Position numbers and translations under genes: made by a program | The notes under the pieces: generated by a model | Told to the model about the DNA's origin: nothing | The model's database searches: none | Seen by the model: the letters and a program-made list of their open reading frames with translations, nothing else | Shown: piece by piece, positions 16,489-18,326 of the stretch | Position numbering within the stretch: the stretch's first letter is position 1 | How the letters are laid out: each line of letters begins with the position of its first letter | Assembly (NCBI RefSeq): GCF_044324785.1 | Contig: NZ_CP172127.1 | Length of the DNA: 64,000 nucleotides | From: Escherichia coli | GTDB taxonomy: Bacteria > Pseudomonadota > Gammaproteobacteria > Enterobacterales > Enterobacteriaceae | Strand: one strand, 5' to 3'

Positions 16489-16502
16489 TAACGCCGTTAT
16501 TA

Positions 16503-16531
16503 AAAAGCCTGCCATCTGGCAGGCTTTTTTA
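16503..16531 (+). terminator. rho-independent terminator of glyQS
   Basis: gcctgcc-atct-ggcaggc hairpin followed by TTTTTT. Confidence 0.8.
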
Positions 16532-16707
16532 TCGCTAAATAATAGAGCAACCTTTAATAATCTTCTGCTGAATAAAGATTATCTCATATATTAATTTTAT
16601 GAGATTTTTTTAGGATTATATCAAGGAGAAGAAACGAACTTATTAAGCTAGAATAGCTGCGGGTGCTTGAGACTGTTTGTCTCAGGTATTCACCGAAAGG
16701 CAGACAG

Positions 16708-16775
16708 AGAAAAGCCCCACCTGACTATAAATCAAAGTGAGGCTACCCTATGCCTGAACACCATAAGGTTAGCCT
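16708..16775 (-). ncRNA. sokA: putative Sok-type antisense RNA of the hokA locus (approximate bounds)
   Basis: Inference from hok/sok architecture; minus-strand hairpin with U-tract lies just upstream of the mokA start; exact ends not determinable. Confidence 0.35.
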
Positions 16776-16962
16776 CTTACTCGTTGGAAATCAACACAGG
16801 AGGCTGGGAATGCCGCAGAAATATAGATTGCTTTCTTTAATAGTGATTTGTTTCACGCTTTTATTTTTCACCTGGATGATAAGAGATTCACTGTGCGAAT
16901 TGCATATTAAACAGGGGAGTTATGAGCTGGCGGCATTTTTAGCCTGCAATTTGAAAGAGTAA
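16750..16962 (+). CDS. mokA: Mok-type overlapping reading frame (translational coupling frame for hokA)
   Basis: 70-aa ORF in the same frame as hokA starting 60 nt upstream, as in other hok/mok loci. Confidence 0.6.
   Translation: MPEHHKVSLLLVGNQHRRLGMPQKYRLLSLIVICFTLLFFTWMIRDSLCELHIKQGSYELAAFLACNLKE
16810..16962 (+). CDS. hokA: Hok-family type I toxin, small membrane peptide (50 aa)
   Basis: MPQKYRLLSLIVICFTLLFFTWMIRDSLCELHIKQGSYELAAFLACNLKE; AGGAGG 7 nt upstream of the ATG. Confidence 0.85.
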   Translation: MPQKYRLLSLIVICFTLLFFTWMIRDSLCELHIKQGSYELAAFLACNLKE

Positions 16963-17117
16963 GAGTGTTTGGCGGGAAGTTATTCCCGCCTTTCTTACGG
17001 CGTTGCGCATTCTCATTGCACCCAAATTTATTTCTTTAATGAATGTTTTTTTAGATACGAATGGATTTGGCTATTAAATAAGTTTTTAATCGGGAACAGG
17101 AATGGTTCGGAGCCTTC

Positions 17118-17489
17118 ATGAATAAACTGCTTTTACTGTTGATAATGCTCTATCAACGACATCTTTCTCCTCGCAAAGGATACCGCTGTGCTTACAGTGT
17201 GTTGTACCAAACGCAGGGATGTTCGGGAGCAGTCAAAGAGATTATTCAACAGAAAGGTGTTATTGCAGGCTGGGGCGAGATACGTCAGCGTTTTGCAGAT
17301 TGCCGACTTGCGGCACTGACAATCAGGCAGAAGCAACACCTGAACGAGGTAATACGTAAAAAGAAGAATAATAATTGTGATTGTTCCGGGTGCGATGGTG
17401 CGGTCTGTCGTGATTGCGACATTCCGGTGCCGGATCTGGATTGTTCCTGGGACTGTTCTTCTCTACATATAAAGCGGTTTTTCCAATAA
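17118..17489 (+). CDS. hypothetical Cys-rich protein; N-terminus loosely resembles the YidD/DUF37 signature, C-terminus has CxC/CxxC clusters
   Basis: 123-aa ORF; GGAG 6 nt upstream of ATG; motif LYQRHLSPRKGYRC resembles the YidD YQRxISP...CR pattern; identity not confirmed. Confidence 0.45.
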   Translation: MNKLLLLLIMLYQRHLSPRKGYRCAYSVLYQTQGCSGAVKEIIQQKGVIAGWGEIRQRFADCRLAALTIRQKQHLNEVIRKKKNNNCDCSGCDGAVCRDCDIPVPDLDCSWDCSSLHIKRFFQ

Positions 17490-17520
17490 AAAAATCCCCG
17501 CCAAATGGCAGGGATCTTAG
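17490..17520 (-). terminator. cspA rho-independent terminator
   Basis: Minus-strand hairpin ccctgcc / ggcgggg (one G-U pair) followed by U-tract immediately after cspA stop. Confidence 0.6.
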
Positions 17521-17542
17521 ATTCTGTGCTTTTAAGCAGAGA

Positions 17543-17755
17543 TTACAGGCTGGTTACGTTGCCAGCTGCCGGGCCTTTAGCGCCGCTTTCGATGGTGAAG
17601 GACACTTTCTGACCTTCGTCCAGAGATTTGTAACCATCGTTCTGGATAGCAGAGAAGTGTACGAACACGTCTTTAGAGCCATCGTCAGGAGTGATGAAGC
17701 CGAAGCCTTTGTCAGCGTTGAACCATTTTACGATACCAGTCATTTTACCGGACAT
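17543..17755 (-). CDS. cspA: major cold shock protein CspA
   Basis: 70 aa [38 protein letters not shown]..., canonical CspA. Confidence 0.98.
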
Positions 17756-17915
17756 AGTGTATTACCTTTAATAATTAATTGTGCCTTTCGGCGATATGGC
17801 GTGCTTTACAGATTTTTGAAGCGTTAAAGGAAATGCACTACGAGGGGTATCAACGATAACTCTTGAAGAGGACTTGCCTTACTACACTGCTTTAATGGTC
17901 TGTACGTCAAACCGT
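17756..17915 (-). promoter_or_regulatory. cspA long 5' untranslated leader including the cold-box element (UGACGUACAGA, complement of 17899-17909)
   Basis: Reverse complement of 17901-17915 reads ACGGTTTGACGTACA, matching the recalled 5' end of cspA mRNA; leader is about 160 nt. Confidence 0.7.
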
Positions 17916-18035
17916 TGAGTGCATTAAGCCACGCATTGGCGGGTGATGCAACAATTATTTTTCATATTTATGATTAATCGGTTGGAAAACGGTCCTGTCA
18001 TCAGGACCGTAAACAGCAATAAAGTGGATAAAAGT

Positions 18036-18326
18036 CTATTCCATCAACTGCTTACTTAATGCCGGGTTGGCTTGAATCAAACGCATCAATTTTAGTTCGG
18101 CACTTGAAGGCTTCACGCGTCTGGATTCCCATTCCTTTACCATGGCGACTGATACGCCCAAAACCCGGGCGAAATCATCGATTTTTAACCCTGTCCCTTT
18201 TCGTAACTGCTCAATTTCGGTACAGGACGTTGTTCTGTGCGTCAGGGTAATTTTCTGCGTTTCATCTTTAAAAACAATCTGTTCCAGGCTGCTCAACAGC
18301 TCATGCATTGGATCTTTATATTCCAT
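18036..18326 (-). CDS. yiaG: XRE-family HTH transcriptional regulator YiaG
   Basis: 96-aa ORF with helix-turn-helix segment (KIDDFARVLGVSVAMVKEWE). Confidence 0.85.
   Translation of the reverse strand: MEYKDPMHELLSSLEQIVFKDETQKITLTHRTTSCTEIEQLRKGTGLKIDDFARVLGVSVAMVKEWESRRVKPSSAELKLMRLIQANPALSKQLME

Follow-up and report, generated by a model that had tools for sequence, protein, structure and literature searches.

The cspA mRNA of Escherichia coli has been described as an RNA thermosensor (PMC9947658, PMC6386945), and its structures at 37 and 10 °C are given in the part of PMC9411577 that summarizes Zhang et al. 2018. The cold box, an element of its leader, was defined by conservation among the leaders of cold-inducible csp genes (PMC6719143), and the published length of the cspA 5'-UTR is 159 or 160 nt (PMC6719143, PMC6386945). 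According to the literature on K-12, a 6-bp 5' hairpin would hold the cold box at 37 °C while the region of the Shine-Dalgarno sequence (SD) and AUG would be paired with nt 74-92, and the mRNA would be short-lived and poorly translated. Upon a cold shift, the cold box would pair with a distant downstream segment and the mRNA would be stabilized; the start region would loosen, so that CspA is made. The cold box may also act in autoregulation in K-12, and work by Jiang, Fang, Bae and Inouye reportedly implicated it in a CspA-dependent form of this control.

The locus analyzed here lies in a 64-kb window, the whole stretch of DNA under analysis, which was collinear with K-12 at 97.4-97.9% identity. 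The cspA coding sequence occupied 17543..17755 on the minus strand as a 70-aa ORF, and its cold-shock domain (Pfam PF00313) scored 113.5 bits. Since the alignment with the K-12 coding region showed only two differences, both synonymous, the encoded protein is identical to K-12 CspA. The first 86 nt of the coding sequence were those of K-12 and covered the position of the downstream box just after the AUG, a concept described for cold-shock mRNAs (PMC6386945, PMC6719143). The upstream neighbor was yiaG (18036..18326, minus strand), the gene order yiaG-cspA-hokA-glyS was the same as in K-12, and a hok/sok locus and glyS flanked cspA on its other side. A terminator scan located the intrinsic terminator of cspA at 17491..17518 (minus strand), with a 12-bp stem followed by a T-run. 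Its stem-loop and T-run were unchanged from K-12, and the final helix of the Rfam RF01766 model represents it.

The naming of this gene varied among annotated genomes. Each of the eight non-K-12 E. coli genomes whose annotation was read has the RefSeq protein WP_000014594.1 at the cspA locus, and this accession is carried under either label, cspE or cspA. The gene is the cspA orthologue, yet its PGAP label in most complete E. coli genomes is 'cspE: transcription antiterminator/RNA stability regulator CspE'; the cspA label appears in some genomes only, which amounts to an inconsistency of gene naming.

The Rfam model of the cspA thermoregulator (RF01766) matched the minus strand at 17488..17916 with 481.8 bits (gathering score 78, E = 3.9e-137), and the match covered model positions 1-428 of 428, the full length. 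This match was far beyond chance. The K-12 cspA locus, used as a control, scored 500.8 bits, so the allele in the window scored 19 bits lower. Based on the full-length match, the yiaG-cspA synteny and the boxes common to the cspB and cspG leaders, we consider it very probable that 17756..17960 (minus strand) is the known cspA element, a promoter followed by a 5'-UTR thermosensor with its cold box. No evidence contradicted the identification of the cspA promoter and leader.

The initial annotation had described a long cspA 5' leader on the minus strand as a known regulatory RNA structure, and both statements were borne out, the first by the RF01766 match together with the adjoining coding sequence and the second by the identity of the structure with the Rfam family. 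It had taken all of 17756-17960 as leader, which holds for 17756..17915; the remaining part, 17916..17960, contains the core promoter and the margin of the UP element. It had also put the non-coding gap at 290 bp, and the actual distance from the yiaG stop to the cspA ATG (17756..18035) was 280 bp.

The leader at 17756..17915 (minus strand) was 160 nt long, and mRNA nucleotide n corresponds to position 17916-n. Its 5' end reads ACGGTTTGACGTACAGA / ACGGTTTGACGTACAGACC / AACGGTTTGACGTACAGACCATTAAAG, in which 17915 is the A of ACGG. Counted from a start position carried over from K-12 by homology, the UTR measures 160 nt, against 159 nt for K-12 itself. From the identity of the promoter to that of K-12 and the published UTR length, we infer that transcription starts at 17915, and a 1-nt deletion between the -10 hexamer and +1 could move this start by one base.

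Several overlapping ORFs were present in this region: a 137-aa frame antisense to cspA (17414..17827, plus strand), a 31-aa frame (17924..18019, minus strand) and a 38-aa frame (17943..18059, plus strand). They would fit the idea that 17756..17960 also encodes a small protein or a small RNA, either antisense or independent. This is extremely unlikely: cspA was the sole Rfam family that reached its gathering score here, the long plus-strand frame simply lies on the opposite strand of a gene that is highly conserved, the short frames span the promoter and the yiaG terminator, and no leader feature was annotated in the eight non-K-12 RefSeq genomes read or in K-12.

The core promoter was read from the sequence at 17923..17951 (minus strand) and was the same as in K-12. 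It consisted of the -35 hexamer TTGCAT (17946..17951), a 17-nt spacer, the TG of an extended -10 (17930..17931) and the -10 hexamer CTTAAT (17923..17928), the last also as in K-12. These hexamers follow established knowledge of the cspA promoter (Tanabe et al. 1992, as cited in PMC9800685). Upstream of the -35 hexamer, an AT-rich UP element (17952..17978, minus strand) had the same sequence as in K-12; its role at the cspA promoter is attributed to Mitta et al. 1997, as cited in PMC6386945. Across the stretch that runs from the yiaG stop codon to the -10 hexamer, the alignment with K-12 contained zero differences. A scan for consensus promoters reported no sigma-70-like site here, the scan rule demanding an A at the second position of the -10 hexamer, where CTTAAT has a T. 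The promoter assignment was therefore based on identity to K-12 and not on the promoter scan.

Directly after the yiaG stop, a GC-rich hairpin with a 9-bp stem (ACGGTCCTG-ATGA-CAGGACCGT) followed by TTTT was observed at 17987..18010 (minus strand). This hairpin is likely the yiaG terminator, which would insulate the cspA promoter. It was missed by the terminator scan, probably because the rule needs at least five T residues and the stem is followed by four.

The cold box UGACGUACAGA was located at 17899..17909 (minus strand), which is mRNA nt 7-17, and was the same as in K-12. The initial annotation was thus right that the motif is present, as the exact 11-mer. This 11-mer, TGACGTACAGA, had one exact copy in the whole window. 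A predicted 6-bp 5' hairpin of nt 3-19 (17897..17913), with -6.4 kcal/mol at 37 °C, enclosed the cold box, and the same hairpin was present in the Rfam consensus structure. A match to 10 of the 11 cold-box positions, TGACGCACAGA, was seen inside yiaG at 18234..18244 (minus strand), with the real cold box approximately 320 nt downstream of it. A second cold box in yiaG was considered and rejected as probably a chance occurrence: three matches with at most one mismatch were found against 0.65 expected, a number that was reached in 3 of 100 shuffles.

The second box of the leader, the upstream box GCCGAAAGGCACA, was found at 17780..17792 (minus strand), nt 124-136, together with a GCC-GAAA-GGC hairpin, and was also unchanged from K-12. 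The hairpin was likewise part of the Rfam consensus structure. We take the name 'upstream box' and its K-12 position, 123-135, to be those of Yamanaka et al. 1999.

The promoter and leader differed from those of K-12 at five positions, none of them inside a defined element. The first was the 1-nt deletion between -10 and +1 (17918..17919, minus strand), where K-12 has GCACATCAACGG and the window GCAC-TCAACGG, which shortens the spacing from 8 to 7 nt. The other four were in the leader, all on the minus strand. An inserted U at nt 47 (17869) changes GUCC-CUUC of K-12 to GUCCUCUUC and falls at a bulge in the long-range consensus helix. At nt 83 (17833), CA is replaced by U, so that CACAUU becomes CAUUU (nt 82-85) in the internal loop of the helix that opposes the SD and AUG. 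A run of five A residues instead of the four of K-12 (17813..17817, nt 99-103) is located in a hairpin loop, and a C-to-A change at nt 137 (17779) is located in the single-stranded linker from the upstream box to the SD. Thus, none of the four leader variants affected a helical position of the consensus; they occupied a bulge, an internal loop, a hairpin loop and a linker. The description of the leader as intact in the initial annotation is correct for the named elements, which were all the same as in K-12, and needs amendment for the leader as a whole, which carried four differences, three of them changes in length. In the same way, alignment with the K-12 cspA sequence matched at the defined elements and not base for base, given the five promoter and leader differences.

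This promoter and leader are among the most conserved non-coding stretches of E. coli, although the flanking DNA in the window was approximately 2.1-2.6% different from K-12. The 205-nt promoter and leader of K-12 had a match of 99% identity or more in 5,403 of 5,422 complete E. coli genomes, and 19 of the 5,422 had at least three differences from it; in an evenly spaced sample of the 5,422 genomes, approximately 78% were 100% identical to K-12 over the 205 nt. The allele of the window was matched at 99% identity or higher in five records, namely N3 (100%) and GF4-3 with three ST2747 records (99.5%). Judged by this genome comparison, the allele in the window is a rare natural variant of an almost invariant leader.

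An allele of this kind could in principle reflect errors of sequencing or assembly, such as the indels of long reads, with the common allele as the true sequence. As this explanation would predict, the differences are found in few genomes, and three or four of them alter the length by 1 nt, in one case within an A-run. However, the same combination, one difference apart, recurred in the independently sequenced N3, GF4-3 and three ST2747 records, which come from different countries and hosts, and subsets of it occurred in 18KM2445, EC42405 and RMDEC465. Moreover, three of the states (the short spacing, the A5 run and CAUUU) are native in other species, and the rest of the window had very few gaps relative to K-12, with intact ORFs. 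We consider an error origin highly improbable, and on the recurrence of its states the window allele is real and not assembly noise.

The DNA beyond the cspA terminator differed from K-12 in several respects. A 123-aa ORF at 17118..17489 (plus strand) was convergent with cspA and ended right at the cspA terminator. It scored 26.1 bits for Pfam YidD, just under the threshold of 27, and had a Cys-rich C-terminal tail; its counterpart in N3, GF4-3 and ST2747 is annotated as YidD by RefSeq. K-12 lacks the yidD-like segment of approximately 445 bp, which occurred in 112 of 5,426 complete E. coli genomes. For this segment (17040..17484), the top-listed match was strain MEW from an ivory gull (99.6%), and the cspA region was 100% identical to N3, so that the DNA in the window may come from a near relative of N3 and not from N3 itself. 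A linkage of the rare cspA allele to the yidD-like insertion was considered and found to be loose: both occur together in N3, GF4-3 and ST2747, but 112 genomes contain the insertion and 18KM2445 has part of the allele without it.

Further along, a hokA/sokA type I toxin-antitoxin locus at 16661..16962 (plus strand) appeared uninterrupted, with an Rfam sok match of 124 bits at 16661..16812 and the Hok frame within the ORF 16750..16962. In K-12, an IS150 element interrupts the hokA/sokA locus, and the annotation lists mokA and sokA as pseudogenes. A sub-threshold match to the enterobacterial sRNA family STnc370 (46.3 bits against a threshold of 54) was seen at 16496..16562 (minus strand), just downstream of glyS and overlapping a terminator-like hairpin.

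The origin of the variant states was examined in a species comparison, for which one genome per species was scanned and 12 Escherichia and Citrobacter loci were aligned. The short 7-nt spacing between -10 and +1 was found in E. whittamii and in all seven Citrobacter loci. The A5 run at +99-103 occurred in E. albertii, E. whittamii and Citrobacter, and the A4 run of K-12 is probably the derived state. The loop at +82 varied in length across the genus: E. albertii has CACAUUU, K-12 CACAUU, the window CAUUU and Citrobacter CGCAUUU; CAUUU was also found in SCPM-O-B-8794 (a GTDB representative labeled E. coli), EC42405 and RMDEC465. The A at +137 was shared by JJ1887, MS1494 and AVS0967 and is a common E. 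coli polymorphism. The inserted U at +47 was confined to the rare E. coli group of N3, GF4-3, ST2747 and 18KM2445, and was absent from all 12 other-species loci aligned.

Three of the five sites were multi-allelic among the sampled E. coli strains, and four of the five varied among the sampled strains or related species. Some strains had partial sets of the alleles: 18KM2445 combined the deletion between -10 and +1 with the U at +47, and EC42405 and RMDEC465 carried the CA-to-U change. All four combinations of the deletion and the CA-to-U change occurred among strains, which indicates recombination or recurrent mutation. The window allele seems to consist of states found elsewhere in the genus plus a few lineage-specific changes, at positions that appear to tolerate change. 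Import of the whole allele from another species was rejected, since no species representative has the full combination and the U at +47 was in none of the 12 loci. By its composition, the allele looks like one reshuffled within E. coli from states of the genus and lineage-specific changes.

One of the strains with the A at +137 showed a different kind of change. In the wastewater isolate AVS0967 (NZ_CP124398.1), at approximately 255-318 of the locus, an IS1 element had inserted into the cspA leader where the Shine-Dalgarno region lies. The leader alignment stopped after ...UUAUUAAA, and the IS1 transposase gene came next. From this alignment, the IS1 insertion is a natural disruption of the cspA translation signals.

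The structure that sequesters the SD and AUG was examined with the Rfam consensus and with ViennaRNA minimum free energy (MFE) folds. The strand opposing the AUG and SD, nt 74-92, was located at 17824..17842 (minus strand), and the strand from SD to AUG at 17753..17771 (minus strand), with the SD AAGG at 17765..17768 and the AUG at 17753..17755; the latter strand was the same as in K-12. In the Rfam consensus and in the MFE folds of both alleles, nt 74-80 (CGUAGUG) paired with CACUAUG across the AUG (nt 157-163), and nt 86-92 (CCUUUAA) paired with UUAAAGG of the SD region (nt 145-151). The predicted probability that the SD is unpaired was at most 0.004. The predicted best alternative partner of the cold box, nt 103-119, and the cold-box hairpin were unchanged between the alleles.

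The only appreciable predicted effect of the variants came from the CA-to-U change, which replaces an asymmetric internal loop by an almost continuous helix. The duplex of nt 74-92 with the SD-AUG strand was predicted at -16.2 kcal/mol in the window versus -14.2 kcal/mol in K-12 at 37 °C, and at -24.7 versus -21.6 kcal/mol at 15 °C, so that the sequestering duplex would be approximately 2 and 3 kcal/mol more stable, respectively. The CA-to-U change alone explained the shift of 2 kcal/mol in the leader MFE at 37 °C. These values could suggest that the rare allele is functionally re-tuned, with the CA-to-U helix, and maybe also the U47 bulge and the shorter spacing, shifting the temperature set-point or the basal level of CspA synthesis in this lineage. 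The prominence of a five-change allele against the very strong conservation of the leader in E. coli would fit such a shift, as would the clustering of length differences: of seven gapped positions in the 20.3-kb aligned block with cspA, four fell within this region of approximately 170 nt.

However, the folds of the whole mRNA were nearly the same for both alleles at all temperatures. Between 10 and 42 °C, their MFEs were within about 2 kcal/mol of each other, with the same architecture, and the predicted accessibility of the SD and AUG was nearly equal; equilibrium folding cannot model the cold-specific conformer, and these values show only that the two alleles behave alike. Furthermore, four of the five sites vary in sampled strains or in related species, where cspA presumably functions, and CAUUU is also present in other E. 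coli strains and in one GTDB species representative. On balance, a functional re-tuning seems unlikely. It is similarly doubtful that a small lineage comprising N3, GF4-3, ST2747 and the source of the window has a thermosensor that accumulated, or acquired by recombination, loop and bulge changes, making the helix that sequesters the SD and AUG more regular and the -10-to-start spacing shorter, and was thereby naturally re-tuned. If this were true, CspA would be expressed at a different basal level or with a different temperature threshold, and the strains would offer a natural allele series for dissecting the thermosensor.

The window allele is most likely functionally equivalent to that of K-12, with at most a slightly more stable predicted helix sequestering the SD. 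This reading was adopted because the elements are the same as in K-12, the leader changes are unpaired and four of the five sites vary elsewhere. In this reading, the segment carries the sigma-70 promoter of cspA (UP element, TTGCAT and TG-extended CTTAAT) and its 160-nt 5'-UTR, and the UTR and coding region together form the mRNA thermosensor. The element itself is textbook knowledge and explains no more than the 280 bp of non-coding DNA upstream of cspA; nothing in the leader of the window challenges the current understanding of cspA regulation. The few variants that occur in nature are concentrated at a small number of unpaired positions, and the rare alleles, the one in the window among them, could serve as test cases for models of the thermosensor.

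Comparison with the other cold-shock genes of K-12 placed this leader among related systems. The cspB, cspG and cspI leaders are long 5'-UTRs, as in cspA. In the alignment, the cold-box core CGGTTTGA..ACAGAC was common to the window leader and the K-12 cspB and cspG leaders, whereas cspI aligned at the cold box over GGTTTG only. The upstream-box hairpin was kept as GCCGAAAGGC in cspB and cspG and as GCCCAAGGGC in cspI. Outside the boxes, the three leaders were strongly diverged, with a mean column identity of 69% in the alignment with the window leader. By sequence, the window leader clearly belongs to a cspA orthologue and not to a paralogue.

The cspA leaders of related species were much closer. 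Those of E. albertii, E. whittamii, the other Escherichia representatives and Citrobacter were nearly identical, with few variable positions. The other-species loci had diverged upstream of the -35 hexamer, where the window is the same as K-12, and the Citrobacter leaders carried further changes near +42-46 and in the linker proximal to the SD.
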